DNA of 11,626 nt, taken from the NCBI GenBank assembly GCA_964247135.1, contig CAXTTL010000154.1, forward strand, positions 1 to 11,626, written 5' to 3'. The notes below the pieces were generated by a model. It ran no database searches. It was given only the letters and a program-made list of their open reading frames with translations, and was not told the origin of the DNA. This DNA is from an uncultured Deinococcales bacterium. GTDB lineage: Bacteria; Deinococcota; Deinococci; Deinococcales; JAAFIG01. Position 1 is the stretch's first letter. Each line of letters opens with the position of its first letter. Both the position numbers and the translations under genes were made by a program. Shown here piece after piece: positions 5,800 through 11,510 of the stretch.

Positions 5800-8700
5800 T
5801 CAACCTGCTTTTATGCGCAGGGCTACGAATTGCTCCAAGGCTTGGGGTGATCCCTTGTGGTTCAAGGCAAAGGCAATGACCTGCTCGAGAGGAGCGGCAC
5901 GTCCAGACTCATGACTGCTGATCCATTTGTCCATCGTGAGTGCCTGTTGGGTTTCTCGAACGAGACGCTCGTGGATTGGGCGACGCAGTGGCGAGAGCGG
6001 CAAACCGATGAGGCTACGAAGTGCTTCGGACGCGCCCAACAGCCAAATCGCCTTTTGGGGTTCAAATTCTTGCAGTGCCAGTGCCGCAAATCCCTCAATC
6101 CCCTGTGCGATCAGCCAGCGTGGTCCGTACTGTCTGGTCGCCGTCAGTGATTCGGTCAATGCACTTCTGGCTTGCTCGAGGTCATGGCGTGCCAGGGCGA
6201 TCAGGGCAAGACTGGAGAGGGATTCGGCACTCGGAGCGCCACCCCAGAGGGTGCGTGCTTTGGCAACGCTTTCCAAAGAAAGTGCTTGCGCGTGCTCGAG
6301 GTCGCCTTGCACGTAGGCAGCCAGCGCAAGGTTGTTGAGTGCAAATGCCACGCCCCAAGCTTCGCCAAGGTCTTCAAACAACACAATGCTTTCTTGAGCC
6401 AAGGCTTGGCAGCGCGTGGCATGGGCTTGTTCGCGGGCAATGTCACTTTGCCCGAGCAATGTGGCAGCCATCCCGCCGCGATCACCAAGTTCTTGATGCA
6501 ATCTCAGGCTTTCCTCGAGCAGACTTTCGGCTCTGGCATACTGTCCCTGTTCACACAACACCAAAGCCAACCTCGAGAGTGAGAGTCCAAGCCCGTCTTG
6601 TCCGATGCTCTGGTGGTTTCCAGCCTCGCGTTGCCTTGACAAACTTTGCTCGAGCAGGCTTGTTGCACGGGCATAATCGCCTTCGGAACGTGCCAGCATC
6701 GCCTCGTTGACCAGGGCGGCTTCCAGTCCAGCCGTTTCGCCCATTTCACGTCTTAAGCTGGCGCTTTCCTGAAAAAAACTGGTCGCAAGTGCAAAATCAT
6801 CACGGGCATGAGCCAACCATGCCGCGCCCGTCAATGCCGTAGCACGCACCGCCAAGGGAACTCGCTGCGTGCTTGTAACCTCGAGTTTAAGCAGACCCTC
6901 GAGCCATTCGCTGCCTTCAACCAAATGACCGCGAATCATCCAGTAATTTTTGAGCGCCCCAGCGAGTTGTAAACCGATTTCGCAATTGCCGTTGTGGTAT
7001 GCCCACTCGAGCGCCACATGGAAGTTCTGGTGATCCAATCCGAGCCTGGAAAGCCAGAGCGCTTTGCTGATCCCGTACAATTCTGAAGCCGCCGTTTGAG
7101 CCAAGGCAAGAAAGAACTGGGCGTGTTGAATTTGAGTCATTTGGCGCACTTCTGGCATAGTCTCGAGTTTCTGATACGCATGTTGGTGAATCAGTGCGTG
7201 TCGGTCATACCGCCCGTCAGCATTGACCCTCAAAAGTGATTTGTCCACCAATGATGTCAGCACCGCAATGGTGACGCCCGTGACCGCACTGGCAGCCTTA
7301 TGGTCAAAACCACCTTGAAAAACCGACAAACTTGCGAGTGCGAATTGTTCTTTGACCGTCAGCAAATTCCAAGAATATTCAAACACCGCCCTCAGGTTGC
7401 GGTGACGCTCCGTGATGTTTCTCGAGTTTGACTCGAGCAAATCAAAATTTTGTGTCAATTCCAAAGCCAATTGCGCGACTGACATGACCTTGACCCACGC
7501 CGCCGCAAGTTCGATTCCGAGCGGCATTCCGTCCACCAAACGACAAATCTTGAGGACACTTGGCAAATCGCTTTGGGTCAAATCAAAATCGATTCTGGCG
7601 CGTTTTGCACGCTGAATAAACAAGCGCACCGCATCGAAAGCTTCGGCATCAGCGAGGTTAACCTGATCGCTCGAGACTCGAAAACCCGAGAGCGGCAGCA
7701 CAAATTCTTCCTCAAGGTTCAGGCGTTCCCGAGAGGTCACGAGCAACATCAGATTTGGGCAACGCTCGAGCAGTTTGGAAATCATCAGTGCGCCGTCGGT
7801 CAGATGCTCGAAGTTGTCGAGCACCAACAAAATGCGATGATCGGCGATAGAAGTTTGCAGCACTTCGAGCGGGTCGGCACTGCCAAAGACTGCAACACCC
7901 AACGCGTCCAAAATGGCTCGAGGAATTTGAGCATTCGAGTTGAGCGTCTCGAGTGGCACAAAATGCAGACCGTTTTCAAACTGGTTTTCTTGCCGTTGAT
8001 CGTGCGCCAATTGCAACGCCAAACGGGTTTTGCCCACACCACCAGCACCCAGAATCGTCACCAACCTGACCTCAGAACCCGCAAGCAGATTTGCCAATTC
8101 AATCAATTCTGGATCACGCCCAACAAACGACGTTTTGGCGCTCGGGATTGGACGCATCGCAAACCGAGTGGCTTTTTGCTTGACCACCACAAAACGCGCT
8201 CGAGCTTCCAACGGCGTCAGGTTCAACTCGAGGTTAAATTCTCGAGCCTCACGTCGAACTTGTGCCGCCAAAACGCTATCGCCCGCCAGCAAAACCGCGT
8301 ACAACCGCTCGAGTTCTTCGGGTTCGGCAGATTTCGCACCCTGAACTTTGTACGCAGCCTCGGCGCGAGTTGCTGCCAGCCCATAATTCTGACTTGCCGC
8401 AAGTTGTTCCGCCTCGTACAACAACGCACCGCGCACCTGAGCCGCAATGGATTCTCGGGTCGCATACACCCATTCCTCGAGTTCGCTGCTCCAATCTGGC
8501 AGCACAAAGCCTTCCAGAAAAGCACCCGAATACAATGCCGCAACGTTTTGAAAATCACGATTTCGCACCGACTCGAGCAAATTCTGAACGTCGCTGGTCA
8601 AAGCAAAAGCCAACTTTTGCCCATCCTCGAGCACCGCGTTTTCCACACCTTGCCGAAGTTGCGTTAACGCCACCCGCAAACTCGAGGCGGGATTTGCGGC

Positions 8701-8841
8701 ATCAGACCAGAACAATTGTGCAATATGCCGCCGGTCTTTCGCACCCTCGAGCGCGAGGTACACCAGCAGCAACAACGGTTTTGGACGTTGAAAGGTGGTC
8801 GCAATGAGCTTTAATTCGCCCAGTGTTTTCAGGCGCACCAT
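5800..8841 (-). CDS. AfsR/SARP-like regulator: N-terminal wHTH/BTAD-like region, STAND (NB-ARC-like) ATPase and TPR repeats
   Basis: 1013 aa from ATG 8841 (MVRLKTLG). SARP-like N-terminus LLLLVYLALEG...LFW...SLRVALTQLRQ and ALYSGAFLEG...EEWV. FVGR motif, Walker A GAGGVGKT, Walker B LLVLDNFEH, LVTSRE, GMPLGIELAAA and RHRNLRAVFEYSW. C-terminal TPR repeats of the GDYARATSLLEQSL type. Confidence 0.9.
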   Translation of the reverse strand: MVRLKTLGELKLIATTFQRPKPLLLLVYLALEGAKDRRHIAQLFWSDAANPASSLRVALTQLRQGVENAVLEDGQKLAFALTSDVQNLLESVRNRDFQNVAALYSGAFLEGFVLPDWSSELEEWVYATRESIAAQVRGALLYEAEQLAASQNYGLAATRAEAAYKVQGAKSAEPEELERLYAVLLAGDSVLAAQVRREAREFNLELNLTPLEARARFVVVKQKATRFAMRPIPSAKTSFVGRDPELIELANLLAGSEVRLVTILGAGGVGKTRLALQLAHDQRQENQFENGLHFVPLETLNSNAQIPRAILDALGVAVFGSADPLEVLQTSIADHRILLVLDNFEHLTDGALMISKLLERCPNLMLLVTSRERLNLEEEFVLPLSGFRVSSDQVNLADAEAFDAVRLFIQRAKRARIDFDLTQSDLPSVLKICRLVDGMPLGIELAAAWVKVMSVAQLALELTQNFDLLESNSRNITERHRNLRAVFEYSWNLLTVKEQFALASLSVFQGGFDHKAASAVTGVTIAVLTSLVDKSLLRVNADGRYDRHALIHQHAYQKLETMPEVRQMTQIQHAQFFLALAQTAASELYGISKALWLSRLGLDHQNFHVALEWAYHNGNCEIGLQLAGALKNYWMIRGHLVEGSEWLEGLLKLEVTSTQRVPLAVRATALTGAAWLAHARDDFALATSFFQESASLRREMGETAGLEAALVNEAMLARSEGDYARATSLLEQSLSRQREAGNHQSIGQDGLGLSLSRLALVLCEQGQYARAESLLEESLRLHQELGDRGGMAATLLGQSDIAREQAHATRCQALAQESIVLFEDLGEAWGVAFALNNLALAAYVQGDLEHAQALSLESVAKARTLWGGAPSAESLSSLALIALARHDLEQARSALTESLTATRQYGPRWLIAQGIEGFAALALQEFEPQKAIWLLGASEALRSLIGLPLSPLRRPIHERLVRETQQALTMDKWISSHESGRAAPLEQVIAFALNHKGSPQALEQFVALRIKAG

Positions 8842-8847
8842 GAGGAC

Positions 8848-8853
8848 AGGGTA
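8848..8853 (-). promoter_or_regulatory. Putative -10 element TACCCT of a leaderless promoter for the STAND regulator
   Basis: Minus strand reads TACCCT-GTCCTC-ATG, with a 6-nt spacer and no SD sequence. Confidence 0.5.
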
Positions 8854-8894
8854 CAGCACGTGAGGACTTGGGTGCAAAACGCTTGAGCCTCAAC

Positions 8895-8927
8895 CGTTAG
8901 CGCCTTGTTAATGCCCCGTTTGGCAAA
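8895..8927 (+). promoter_or_regulatory. Candidate SARP-type operator: 11-bp-period direct repeats
   Basis: CGTTAGCGCCT / TGTTAATGCCC / CGTTTGGCAAA, with GTT at 8896, 8907 and 8918, in the divergent promoter next to a SARP-like regulator. Confidence 0.5.
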
Positions 8928-8977
8928 CTCTGGTCAGACGAGGGCAACCTCGAGCGACACGAACAGGAGATCAAGCC

Positions 8978-9139
8978 ATGAACCCACCAATCCGCGAGAC
9001 ATACCAAACTCCGAAGCTCGAGACGCATACCGATTGGAAAGCCATGACGGGCGCACCTGTCAGCGTGCCAATCACGAGTTTATCCACCGACCCCAACGAC
9101 ACGCTCGAGAAAATGCTCGGGTTCTTGAAAGGACAATGA
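8978..9139 (+). CDS. 53-aa small peptide with a lasso/RRE-dependent RiPP-like leader
   Basis: Below the ORF-track cutoff. RBS AGGAGA (8965-8970) lies 7 nt before the ATG. Translation: MNPPIRETYQTPKLETHTDWKAMTGAPVSVPITSLSTDPNDTLEKMLGFLKGQ*. Contains YxxPxL and TG. The stop is 1 nt before the next ATG. Confidence 0.75.
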   Translation: MNPPIRETYQTPKLETHTDWKAMTGAPVSVPITSLSTDPNDTLEKMLGFLKGQ

Positions 9140-9140
9140 A

Positions 9141-11510
9141 ATGCGAAAATTACTGCTGCCAATATTGGTTTTAGCGTTTAGCGCTTGCAATCAAAGTCAA
9201 CTGATTCGTCCGATCATGCCAAGCACTCCCCACGGTTTGGTCGAAATCAATTTTTCTGAAATCGGCAACTCACAGCCAAACTCGAGCGCCAAAAACATTC
9301 CCTCGAGAAATCAAACCCGCACCCTGAGCGACAACACTGGCGGCATTGACATGAAGCTGGTCAGCACCAACGCATTTACCTTTAACCCTGGGGTCAACCG
9401 TCAAGATGGTTTTCGTTACCTGAGTGCAACCTACAAAATTCGCAACGCCGACAGCACTGGCACACTTTACGCAACACCTCGCAACAACCTCAGCTTTGTG
9501 GCGGTCAGCACCCCTAGCACCCTTGGCGGCAGCGCCGTCTCGAGCTTACTGCGCTTTGATGGCACACCAGCCGACTCGAGCATCGCGCCACTGATTCGTC
9601 CAACCCACGAAATGACGCTTGATGGCAACACGTTAACGCCCAAAACCCTAACGGGAAAAGAAGACTTTCAAGCCTACCTCGAGACTGAAATCGCTCAATT
9701 TCAACCGGGTGGTTTGAACCCGGTCACGGGTGTGAACAGCGTTTTTGGTTACGGCTTCGTGACCCGCCCCATCGGAAACACCGACAGCCGCATTTTACCC
9801 GCAGTGCCAGTTCGACCAGACGGGTACGACGGCATGGTGACCTTTGCCGTGCGCGTACCCTTGCAAGCCAATCCAAATGGTGCAAGCAAAGACCCATTCA
9901 GTTTCTCGATGCTGTTTGAAGTCATGGATGACAGCCAAACCACCGTCACCGAAAGTCTCGAGGAGCAAAATAACCTGGGCAACGCGTTTTCTCGGTCAGT
10001 GGGTTTAAACAATGCGCCAATCAAAATCCTGCCTGGCAGCAGCATCAGCGGCACTCCCGTCTGCCGAATTCGCACCGCAGGCACGGTCAACAACCCACTG
10101 GCTTTCATGGTCAACTCGAGCACCCTGAACGGCACACCCGCTCTTGCCAATCACATGTTTGCCACTGCGGGCAGCCCAATAGAAGCCATGTTCGACCAAC
10201 CCATGAACGCTGCCAACGCCCAAACGTTTAGCGTCAATGGTTCGATGACAGGTTTCAAAACTGGCTCGTACACTGGCGCCGGCACGAACAAACTTAAGTT
10301 TACTCCAACCGATACCTCGAGCACCAAGTTTCCAGCCAATGAAGAGCTTGAAGTCACACTGAATGGCGGATTAAACGACACGACTGGAAAAGCTATTTGC
10401 GCTCCGTACAGCTTTAAATACCGTACAGGAGTAAACGTCTCGAGTAGCGCGAGCTTTCCACTCTCGAGGACGTTCAACACAGGTGGTGGACCGGTATCGG
10501 TGATCACAGCGGACATGAACGAAGACGGTAAAATAGATTTGATTGTTCAGGATAGTATAGGTCAGTTGAACGTCAAGTGGGGCAATGGTTTTGGTGATTT
10601 TTCAAGCGGCGCGTTTATTCCTCCTGGTGATTTCAATTTTCCTGGTCAATCAATCGTTGCATCTGACCTGAATCACGACCATCACCTTGACCTGGTAGTC
10701 ACCAGTCCAGCTTCAAATTACATCAGCGTCATGTTAGGTAATGGTCTTGGAGGATTTACTAGAACAGATATTGTGTTATCGGCAATTGATGAACTTCGTC
10801 CATCTTTGATAAAAATAACGGACTTCAATAGCGATGGAATTTTGGATATTGTGAGTGTTAATACCACAAACATTCCTGGTTTAAATTCTATCTCCGTTCT
10901 ATTGGGCAATGGAGATGGTAGTTTCAAACCAAGCATTGTAAATCGTATTTCAAGTGCTGGTTTATTCAGTTCTATCAGCGTCGATGATCTTAACAATGAT
11001 GGAAAAATAGATGTCATCCTTGGCAACTTTAGTTCGAGTTCGGTAAAACTTTTGCTTGGCGCTGGCAATGGTCGTTTTCAAGCCCCAACACTTGTTGCGT
11101 TGCCTGGTATTCCAGCTTATGTTACGACCAGCGATGTGAACAACGATGGAAAACTAGACCTCATCGCTGTTTTTTTCAGTCAAGGCGCAGGCAGCGTCGG
11201 TATTTTACTTGGCAATGGCGATGGCAGTTTTCAAGCACCAAACTTCAAACCATTTGGGGTCAACCCTCAAGGAGTCCTGACCGCCGACCTGAACGGCGAC
11301 GGCAAACTTGACATCGCCACCTGTGACTCCAACTCGAGTCAAGTCATCATACTGTTGGGCAACGGCGACGGAACATTCCAAAATGGTTATGCCATTCCAG
11401 TTGGTGCTGGACCAGACTCTCTGAGTGCCGCCGACCTCAACAATGATGGGAAACTGGATTTGGCAGTCACAATTTATCCCCAAAATTACGTCCAAGTCTT
11501 ATTTCAATAA
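9141..11510 (+). CDS. Lipoprotein with an uncharacterised N-terminal domain, an SbsA/Big_5-like Ig domain and a seven-repeat FG-GAP/VCBS beta-propeller
   Basis: 789 aa. Lipoprotein signal MRKLLLPILVLAFSA-C16 and RBS AAAGGA (9128-9133). Ig-like segment IEAMFDQPMN...LKFTPT...LEVTLNGGL...YSFKYRT. Seven D-x-N-x-D-G-x-x-D-type repeats: DMNEDGKID, DLNHDHHLD, DFNSDGILD, DLNNDGKID, DVNNDGKLD, DLNGDGKLD, DLNNDGKLD. Confidence 0.9.
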   Translation: MRKLLLPILVLAFSACNQSQLIRPIMPSTPHGLVEINFSEIGNSQPNSSAKNIPSRNQTRTLSDNTGGIDMKLVSTNAFTFNPGVNRQDGFRYLSATYKIRNADSTGTLYATPRNNLSFVAVSTPSTLGGSAVSSLLRFDGTPADSSIAPLIRPTHEMTLDGNTLTPKTLTGKEDFQAYLETEIAQFQPGGLNPVTGVNSVFGYGFVTRPIGNTDSRILPAVPVRPDGYDGMVTFAVRVPLQANPNGASKDPFSFSMLFEVMDDSQTTVTESLEEQNNLGNAFSRSVGLNNAPIKILPGSSISGTPVCRIRTAGTVNNPLAFMVNSSTLNGTPALANHMFATAGSPIEAMFDQPMNAANAQTFSVNGSMTGFKTGSYTGAGTNKLKFTPTDTSSTKFPANEELEVTLNGGLNDTTGKAICAPYSFKYRTGVNVSSSASFPLSRTFNTGGGPVSVITADMNEDGKIDLIVQDSIGQLNVKWGNGFGDFSSGAFIPPGDFNFPGQSIVASDLNHDHHLDLVVTSPASNYISVMLGNGLGGFTRTDIVLSAIDELRPSLIKITDFNSDGILDIVSVNTTNIPGLNSISVLLGNGDGSFKPSIVNRISSAGLFSSISVDDLNNDGKIDVILGNFSSSSVKLLLGAGNGRFQAPTLVALPGIPAYVTTSDVNNDGKLDLIAVFFSQGAGSVGILLGNGDGSFQAPNFKPFGVNPQGVLTADLNGDGKLDIATCDSNSSQVIILLGNGDGTFQNGYAIPVGAGPDSLSAADLNNDGKLDLAVTIYPQNYVQVLFQ

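Follow-up and report, generated by a model that had tools for sequence, protein, structure and literature searches.

A conserved short peptide gene ahead of Deinococcota lipoprotein genes, a probable precursor of a linear, enzyme-modified peptide

The linear polyphosphorylated peptides (LPPs) of Bacillota, which are made by lppA-K-B-S-D-N clusters, have been known only since 2026 (Popov et al., Nat Commun 2026, PMC13381572). In that report, LPP precursors are 35–200 amino acids (aa) long, share the consensus YxxPxVLxHQxIxFETxxS and have variable C-termini. Their leader is bound by LppB, a discrete recognition element (RRE) for peptides made on ribosomes and modified after translation (RiPPs); an HprK-like kinase, LppK, adds several phosphates to Ser3 of the core; and the SpI/SipW-type LppS cuts the leader after T−1. 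The clusters also encode a nucleoside triphosphate (NTP) transferase of the PF14907 type (LppN) and an MsbA-like exporter, LppD. According to the same authors, RREs discriminate the Y-x-x-P leaders of LPPs from the W-x-x-P leaders of paeninodin-type lasso peptides, LPPs and paeninodins are both restricted to Bacillota, and the function of LPPs is unknown. For pseudomycoidin, it is reported that PsmK phosphorylates the peptide and that PsmN is required for a hexose on the phosphate (PMC6993621). Here we describe a 53-aa peptide, P0001, encoded at 8978..9139 on the forward strand of an 11,626-nt stretch of DNA (the window) from an uncultured Deinococcales bacterium; the window is the entire contig C154 of a 5.09-Mb genome that is divided into 386 contigs and is 84% complete. 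Named database relatives of its proteins come from a "Deinococcales bacterium" and from Deinococcus. In our view, this open reading frame (ORF) is likely to specify a precursor from which a linear, enzyme-modified peptide is made; in Deinococcota, it would be the counterpart of the LPPs and of the tailoring branch of phosphorylated lasso peptides.

The peptide gene starts with ATG and is preceded by the Shine-Dalgarno sequence AGGAG (8965-8969, forward strand), 8 nt before the start codon; a purine-rich stretch occupies the same position in all six paralogs inspected. Its TGA stop lies at 9137-9139, and the single base 9140 separates it from the ATG (9141) of a lipoprotein gene, P0002, whose own Shine-Dalgarno sequence, AAGGA (9129..9133, forward strand, 7 nt before the ATG), is contained in the last codons of the peptide gene. 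All the features that an earlier sequence-only reading of this DNA had listed as seen in the ORF hold up: coordinates, translation and AGGAG agree exactly with a 53-aa ORF with a strong ribosome-binding site that ends 1 nt before the lipoprotein ATG, and the lipoprotein ribosome-binding site is indeed embedded in it.

The translated peptide falls into three parts. The leader carries YQTPKL (residues 9-14, 9002..9019), a Y-x-x-P-x-L motif that is conserved across the family and is predicted to dock on an RRE; it belongs to the motif class read by the discrete RREs of lasso and LPP pathways (PMC13381572). The leader's characteristic residues are Y9, P12, L14, H17, T24 and G25. T24-G25 (9047..9052), with the Thr 15 residues past the Tyr, is the predicted leader/core junction, and cleavage would occur after either T24 or G25. 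Next comes VSVPIT (9059..9076), the window version of a box aligned across the family as [VI]-S-[LV]-P-I-[GT], in which Ser29 is a candidate phospho-acceptor by analogy with Ser3 of LPPs; this Ser lies at +20 from the Tyr, not +18. The remainder (9077..9136) is a variable tail, net acidic across the family, with 3 D+E vs 2 K+R in the window copy and a first acidic residue at D38. The sequence-only reading had called the leader lasso-type: Y9-x-x-P12-x-L14 and T24-G25 are present, but by analogy with LPPs the Thr may sit at −1 rather than at −2. The further statement that core positions 7-9 lack Asp and Glu is correct whether the core is counted from G25 (P/I/T) or from A26 (I/T/S). Among named models, P0001 gave a sub-threshold match to NCBIfam lasso_cyano (15.3 bits vs a cut-off of 33), and its paralog on contig C141 passed NF033521 lasso_leader_L3 (20.1 bits vs a cut-off of 19), a cut-off below which the window copy falls.

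The ORF is a real gene under purifying selection. P0001 used alone as a query recovered a paralog on contig C147 (E 0.001), and a single-sequence search of a 5.8-billion-protein index returned P0001 alone; profiles are thus required to detect the family. A motif scan combined with the P0001 search placed paralogs on contigs C141, C26, C147, C16, C126, C58, C40 and C3, and a local hidden Markov model found nine peptide ORFs in the window genome, so that P0001 is one of at least nine paralogs there. A profile built from six paralogs matched 15 of the 18 other genomes of the window's taxonomic family, at 1–15 copies each, and none of 22 genomes from other families of the order. We then searched 201 Deinococcota genomes with a broader profile (A3) of 29 sequences including the window copy. 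The peptide family was found in 36 of them (2/2 in group f1, 31/92 in f3 and 2/57 in f5), with no match in f4 (0/9) or f2 (0/40). Two genomes from the genus of the window carry copies related to P0001 in which the frame is kept, two of them in G001 and one in G004. The ratio of nonsynonymous to synonymous substitution rates (dN/dS) was 0.34–0.56 against the window copy, 0.11–0.56 over all six pairs of the window's subgroup and 0.19–0.44 over the 15 pairs of a second orthologous group. The conserved homologous ORF and leader on which the sequence-only reading had staked its case are thus present, with dN/dS below 1.

In public protein sets the family forms 54 clusters at 90% identity, all unnamed or annotated as "hypothetical protein" and free of Pfam domains; at 50% identity, 228 representatives remain. 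The best 150 of these include 145 of 38–89 aa and five long matches (159–4676 aa), which are mostly multi-stretch matches in repeat proteins; no fused peptide-lipoprotein form is apparent among the 150. Members follow a common pattern of a leader, Y-x-x-P-x-[LVI]-E-x-H...T-G, the box, and an acidic tail that varies. All 29 aligned members have Y..P.[LVI], as do 189 of 190 short database members. His at +8 from the Tyr occurs in 20 of the 29 aligned members and Thr at +15 in 18, most of the remainder having it at +14. The box itself is less uniform, with S[LV]PI in 16/29 aligned members and SLPIG in 80/190 database members. T[GA].S is found in 120/190 database members, and seven of the 29 aligned members have the Thr at +15 followed by x-x-S, which places the Ser at +18. 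After the Thr, the tails of the 29 members contain 2–6 D+E vs 0–2 K+R and almost no Cys, and in these members the first acidic residue falls after the box. A longer variant of about 94–102 aa, with a Y-Q-K-P-G-L...W-K-A-L-T leader and no SLPIG box, was also observed in the window genome (G000:C40:1-282) and in G004 (contig C169, locus L067, 6476-6784 on the reverse strand); the G004 copy lies just downstream of the copy related to P0001 and is not directly followed by a lipoprotein gene.

Where are the processing enzymes? As the sequence-only reading stated, the window itself encodes no RRE, peptidase or cyclase: PqqD, Transglut_core3 and Asn_synthase matched none of the nine large ORFs scanned. 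Elsewhere in the genome, PF05402 and PF13471 have two matching places each. Contig C14 encodes a PqqD protein (PF05402, 62 bits) and, in the overlapping ORF that follows, a P-loop protein of 291 aa; part of this protein resembles HprK_rel_A, and HprK-related kinase A is the best of its NCBIfam matches (E 9e-8). Contig C33 encodes a 449-aa fusion of an NTP_transf_5 domain (PF14907, E 1.7e-22) with a B2-type Transglut_core3 domain (E 3.9e-12), in which Cys369 and His403, invariant in an alignment with a canonical B2 peptidase, are kept. Contig C32 carries a paeninodin-like lasso cluster (L015 = G000:C32:9000-26000, 6778-14815) with genes for a sulfotransferase, B2, B1, a cyanobacterial-type cyclase, a precursor, an HprK-like kinase and an NB-ARC/TPR paralog of the window protein P0003. 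The precursor of this cluster is a 52-aa peptide with a W-x-x-P leader and a G1...D8 core (L015 10690-10848). Its cyclase is split into two ORFs (L015 8787-9842 and 9882-10643) with two in-frame stops, so that the gene is either broken or mis-assembled. RRE-containing proteins, at least one of which the sequence-only reading expected in the genome, are thus found on C14 (PqqD) and on C32 (B1).

We examined the co-occurrence of the peptide with these enzymes across the 201 genomes, counting peptide matches at E<=0.001. Among the 36 peptide-positive genomes, a strong kinase match was present in 35/36, PF14907 in 35/36 and the N-terminal domain of the adjacent lipoprotein (domain X, see below) in 35/36. 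All 47 kinase-positive genomes contain PF14907 and 44 of the 47 contain domain X. Twelve kinase-positive genomes have no peptide match at that threshold; divergence of their peptides is a possible reason. PqqD and Transglut_core3 matches are also missing from the three genomes of the window's family that lack the peptide (G007, G008 and G010; 87–91% complete).

Physical linkage is stronger evidence than these counts, and the enzymes do cluster physically with the peptide family in relatives. Outside the window's family, 33 genomes are peptide-positive; by hand tally, 20 of them have a peptide gene no more than 8 kb from a PF14907 match, and 27 have one no more than 8 kb from either a PF14907 or a kinase match. 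In the high-G+C genome G020, probably a Deinococcus, a lipoprotein gene, a peptide gene overlapping the lipoprotein start, divergent PqqD and kinase genes and a convergent NTP-B2 fusion gene follow one another within 6.4 kb. In G012, the PqqD-kinase pair is flanked on one side by a P0003 paralog and on the other, 3.3 kb off, by a peptide-lipoprotein cassette; in G011, a PqqD-kinase-NTP-B2 group follows the same M23/LysM and Rho genes as are found in the window; and in G090 and G181 the peptide-lipoprotein cassette is flanked by processing enzymes. No Asn_synthase gene was found in the related clusters scanned. Moreover, of the 15 genomes in the window's family that carry the peptide, eight lack a cyclase-type match at E<=1e-20, including G011 (a single contig, 94% complete by marker genes, with seven peptide copies) and G009 (94% complete). 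Together, the C14 PqqD-kinase pair, the C33 fusion, the co-occurrence and the clustering in relatives give computational support to the earlier idea of an orphan precursor processed in trans by non-lasso RRE machinery. The accompanying claim that a canonical macrolactam is unlikely also stands, since the ring acceptor is absent and a lasso cyclase is evidently not needed.

The same arrangement is present in Deinococcus radiodurans R1, a model organism amenable to genetics. When plasmid records were searched at the protein level with the G020 fusion, 18 records matched, all from Deinococcus; the D. radiodurans counterpart of the system lies at 77-89 kb of megaplasmid MP1 (NC_000958.1). Gene order there is NTP-B2 (DR_RS15790), a small ORF, DR_RS15795 (= DR_B0067), a second small ORF, DR_RS15800, an S8 peptidase, a kinase-like protein (DR_RS15810) and PqqD (DR_RS15815). 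In the annotation, DR_RS15790 is a "lasso peptide biosynthesis B2 protein", the kinase match a "hypothetical protein" and the last gene a "PqqD family protein"; DR_RS15795 is an ExeM/NucH nuclease and DR_RS15800 an Ig-like protein with domain X. The two small ORFs (L075 7616-7828 and 3752-4141, reverse strand) lie just upstream of DR_B0067 and DR_RS15800, respectively; each combines the leader of the family with an exact SLPIG box, and their profile E values are 3e-7 and 1e-4. Both are absent from the gene table that we consulted, which is itself incomplete, and the original record may annotate them. DR_B0067 is an extracellular nuclease of strain R1 for which a deletion phenotype and an activity assay have been published (PMC3554781); the abstract of that report does not mention the upstream small ORF or the PqqD, kinase and B2 neighbours. 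Like DR_B0067, an ExeM/NucH-type lipoprotein directly follows a family peptide in related clusters, and the C147 cassette of the window genome is of the same type. The window lipoprotein differs in having FG-GAP repeats and no nuclease.

How closely does this system resemble those already described? The register Y, P(+3), hydrophobic(+5), H(+8), T(+15) is common to LPP precursors and the present family. Both systems combine a discrete PqqD-type RRE, an HprK-like kinase (here of predicted activity) and a PF14907-type NTP transferase, and both do without a cyclase. The window genome, in which the C32 lasso cluster with its W-x-x-P precursor stands alongside the Y-x-x-P linear pathway, each with its own RRE, mirrors the picture drawn in PMC13381572, where a Y-x-x-P pathway shares a genome with a cluster of the phosphorylated-lasso type. 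The present system differs from LPPs in several respects. It belongs to another phylum, Deinococcota; leader removal would fall not to LppS but to a Cys/His domain of the B2 type that shares a polypeptide with the NTP transferase; the clusters examined encode no MsbA-like exporter; precursor genes occur in multiple copies dispersed over the genome, with a lipoprotein gene coupled to each; and the box past the cut site, SLPIG, is a different one. Thus, the precursor leader, the RRE and kinase, and the NTP transferase of LPP systems have counterparts here, whereas the SpI-type peptidase and the cluster exporter do not. No signal-peptidase family appeared among the Pfam matches of the same clusters, the whole genomes not being searched for SipW-like genes.

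In the phosphorylated or glycosylated lasso peptides (paeninodin, pseudomycoidin), as in the present system, the B1 RRE and the B2 peptidase are split. Those systems also have a kinase of the HprK type, which phosphorylates a Ser of the precursor, and an NTP transferase of the PsmN type, and counterparts of both are present here. In contrast, the present system has no Asn-synthetase-like cyclase and no Asp/Glu at core 7-9, the B2 domain is fused to the transferase, and the Ser lies near the core N-terminus rather than at the C-terminus. Of the marks of a lasso system, the leader motif, the penultimate Thr and the B1/B2 pair are therefore seen, and the ring acceptor and a dedicated cyclase are not. 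A third comparison is with the HPr-rel-A system (TIGR04352, TIGR04353), in which a PqqD-like protein likewise adjoins an HprK-related kinase and is accompanied by a nucleotidyltransferase; the present system differs in having a separate precursor and a B2 domain. Membership in HPr-rel-A was rejected, as the C14 kinase scored 31.6 bits vs 200 (TIGR04352) and the C14 PqqD protein 21.7 vs 35 (TIGR04353). A literature search, which did not extend to subscription journals, found no prior description of this Deinococcota peptide-lipoprotein system.

Peptide-lipoprotein coupling is conserved across the family. Directly after 28 of 32 sampled peptide members from 16 genomes, many of them mutually orthologous, comes an ORF with a lipoprotein signal at a spacing of −12 to +10 nt, and three of the four remaining members sit near the end of the locus DNA examined. 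In 25 of these 28 pairs the two genes are joined by an ATGA overlap. The window lipoprotein P0002 (9141..11510, forward strand, 789 aa) begins with a signal peptide with Cys16, followed by an unnamed β-rich domain of about 280 aa at residues ~29-300 (9225..10040, forward strand), which we call domain X, and by a variable C-terminal module composed of Big_5 (residues 332-429) and an FG-GAP/VCBS repeat propeller (residues ~440-789; module at 10134..11507, forward strand). Pfam matched FG-GAP_3 (E 7e-56), FG-GAP and Big_5 in this protein and nothing in residues 1-331. Lipoproteins encoded after family peptides share their first ~300 aa (alignment A2, 17 sequences, 22–28% identity to P0002). Their C-terminal modules vary between FG-GAP, cadherin-like, PKD/LTD/EEP nuclease and β-propeller types, and overall they are multi-domain proteins of 390–1300 aa. 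The sequence-only reading had offered a partner peptide for the adjacent lipoprotein as one option, and this option gains computational support from the placement of 28/32 members before a lipoprotein with a shared N-terminal domain.

The fold of domain X did not lead to a named family. An AlphaFold2 model was β-rich (predicted TM score 0.73, mean pLDDT 68). Foldseek returned no match in the PDB at E<=0.001, VIA-align gave best Z scores of 6.5 (7dda_A, 118 aligned residues, root-mean-square deviation 3.8) and 5.0 (5hlj_A), both in the range that the tool treats as common, and the top score in the ESM Atlas was 0.85 with no named family. Domain X occurs in 59 of the 201 Deinococcota genomes, and also in residues 71-315 of a Gemmatimonadales VCBS repeat protein, P0214 (782 aa; hhalign probability 99.5%, 39% identity over 228 columns), which means that it is not confined to Deinococcota. 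Distances between peptides and between the adjacent domains X correlate (Mantel r 0.72 over 25 pairs, a value reached in 0/2000 permutations), which indicates that cassettes are inherited as units and is not a sign that their products bind. Cassettes can also multiply and decay. The ortholog of the window locus in G001 (contig C830, locus L066, 275-9251) is a tandem array of three cassettes, in which the peptide gene of the first lipoprotein has lost ~84 nt, the greater part of its length, and two complete peptide genes follow; since the window contig ends 116 nt past P0002, further cassettes may follow there as well. In the window genome, a decayed peptide remnant whose leader lacks the Tyr and which has no ATG precedes an intact domain X lipoprotein gene (G000:C89:2380-2520).

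What would this machinery do to the peptide? We propose that the Y9-x-x-P12-x-L14 leader would dock on the discrete PqqD-type RRE from C14 and that the HprK-like kinase encoded next to it would phosphorylate the box Ser (Ser29). Another group, for example a hexose on the phosphate as in the case of PsmN, may be attached by the NTP_transf_5 domain of the C33 protein, and the fused B2-type Cys/His peptidase domain would remove the leader at T24/G25. No macrolactam ring would form, and the product would be linear. Peptide and lipoprotein would be made from one mRNA, with stop/start coupling in most family members, and the mature acidic phosphopeptide would most likely act on or with the lipoprotein in the envelope. 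Every chemical step is inferred, with LPPs and pseudomycoidin as models, and so are the cut site, export and the role of the product for the lipoprotein.

Several observations weigh against this proposal. No modification, cleavage or expression has been observed. No RNA run contains window 8700-9700, nine runs sharing only ~5% of its words, and the box motif occurs 0 times in four supplement files of a D. radiodurans small-ORF peptidome (PMC9650054), which a modified peptide could escape. The C14 kinase and RRE both fall below the curated cut-offs of every named NCBIfam model. The window copy has its Ser five residues past the Thr rather than three, and some subgroups in the window's genus carry the box Ser two positions later, so that a fixed acceptor position is not conserved. 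Of the 16 domain X genes in the window genome, five have a peptide in front and 11 do not, which shows that domain X can do without the peptide. Because the genomes compared are related to one another, the co-occurrence counts overstate independence; many of the genomes are incomplete metagenome-assembled genomes. Finally, no conserved exporter was found among the clusters examined (L048, L049, L051, L069-L072, L074): L069 has an ABC ATPase at its edge and the C26 cassette an ABC-2 pair beside it, neither of which is conserved across clusters. This makes it harder to see how a cytoplasmic product would meet an exported lipoprotein.

Could the peptide act simply as translated? An unmodified small protein could assist or restrain the lipoprotein from the cytoplasm, as a holdase, inhibitor or assembly factor, with the lasso-like leader as a structural coincidence or a relic. 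What varies least among the peptides is their stop/start coupling to the lipoprotein, most cassettes in the window's family have no maturase gene linked to them, the clusters have no exporter, and in some Deinococcus the coupled protein is a nuclease, an enzyme class that often has cognate inhibitors. We nevertheless regard this explanation as unlikely, because the best-conserved part of the peptide is the RRE-docking motif and because kinase and PF14907 genes accompany the peptide so regularly, both in genome content and in the 8-kb neighbourhood tally given above. Slightly less likely still, in our judgement, are pairs of an exported antimicrobial peptide and an immunity lipoprotein served by one shared processing machinery. 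Lantibiotic LanI immunity proteins are lipoproteins, and the many dispersed pairs per genome (1–15 peptide copies), the variable tails and the processing genes shared in trans would all suit bacteriocins. The lipoproteins found here, however, are large and adhesin- or enzyme-like in their FG-GAP, cadherin-like, PKD, LTD and EEP nuclease modules, most domain X genes of the genome stand without a peptide, the clusters contain no exporter or C39 peptidase, and the tails are acidic with almost no Cys.

Two further explanations appear very improbable. P0001 could be a true lasso precursor cyclised in trans by the C32 cluster, which does have B2, B1 and cyanobacterial-type cyclase genes as well as those for an HprK-like kinase and a sulfotransferase, and the weak lasso_cyano match of the window copy would fit. 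But the core has no acidic residue at positions 7-9, C32 has its own W-x-x-P precursor and a cyclase frame with two stops, about half of the peptide-positive genomes of the window's family have no cyclase match, near-complete G011 and G009 among them, and the Deinococcus clusters examined contain no Asn_synthase gene. The missing ring acceptor and cyclase largely refute lasso-peptide identity. We give equally little credence to a regulatory upstream ORF that only couples or tunes translation of the lipoprotein and whose product has no role. The ATGA overlap and the lipoprotein Shine-Dalgarno sequence within the peptide ORF are what such an element would show, but it would account neither for conservation at the amino-acid level (dN/dS 0.11–0.56), nor for a fixed motif common to 228 representative clusters, nor for co-occurrence with peptide-processing enzymes. 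The reading that we prefer thus remains that of a precursor of a linear, enzyme-modified peptide.

A bolder form of this reading is possible, although we doubt it more than we believe it: the peptide may be a dedicated phospho- or phosphoglycosyl-decorated subunit that surface lipoproteins of Deinococcota, and perhaps of Gemmatimonadota, need for maturation, anchoring or activity, rather than a diffusible natural product, and it might bind their shared N-terminal domain. If this were true, a RiPP pathway would have been co-opted for lipoprotein biogenesis, with DR_B0067 as one client. The preferred reading, for its part, would extend LPP-type peptides to another phylum with a different leader peptidase and tie them to a concrete class of partners, nearly every precursor being co-translated with a surface lipoprotein. 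Because the arrangement stands beside DR_B0067 in D. radiodurans, the purpose of such a phosphopeptide becomes testable. The analysis also flags at least two small ORFs that are not in the consulted, incomplete D. radiodurans gene table, and it defines a previously unnamed lipoprotein domain, domain X.

Upstream of the peptide gene and divergent from it lies P0003 (5800..8877, reverse strand), which resembles STAND-type regulators (signal transduction ATPases with numerous domains) and combines an NB-ARC/NACHT ATPase with TPR repeats around an AfsR-like centre (Pfam NB-ARC, NACHT and TPR_12; NCBIfam AfsR-like match of 75 bits, below the cut-off). Its N-terminal ~230 aa have no Pfam assignment. 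The true start is probably the ATG at 8839-8841; alignments of P0003 with its paralogs begin near residue 14-16. The divergent intergenic region (8842..8977) is by its position the presumed promoter and operator; a sigma-70 consensus scan found no site in it, a scan for promoter and terminator consensus sequences found nothing at the locus, and Rfam has no match in window 8500-9500. Over ~990 aa, P0003 shares 28% identity with the regulator that adjoins the lasso cluster on C32 (E 2e-81), and it shares 29% with the one that adjoins the G012 PqqD-kinase pair (E 5e-58). P0003 probably regulates the peptide operon, to judge by its position and by these two paralogs, one next to the C32 cluster and the other next to the enzyme pair of G012. 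Only four of the 13 P0003 paralogs in the genome lie within ~6 kb of a part of the system, which leaves the regulatory link suggestive. Nothing supports the sequence-only suggestion that this TPR protein is the binding partner of the peptide; it looks like a regulator of the operon.

Two minor observations concern the surrounding DNA. The hexamer CTCGAG occurs five times in the 600 nt of window 8800-9400, three of these within the peptide gene. In addition, one type of cassette runs into a conserved operon, seen on contig C26 of the window genome (L011, 2841-8491) and in L070 (2954-9169) and L069 (7721-13996). In the window genome, G090 and G181, this operon consists of the peptide gene, a gene for a cadherin-like domain X lipoprotein, two to three genes for phage-tail-collar (PF07484) proteins and a periplasmic-binding-protein-like gene; in G090 and G181 a GNAT gene follows, and the opposite strand carries a DUF6916 gene and a gene for a short domain X protein.

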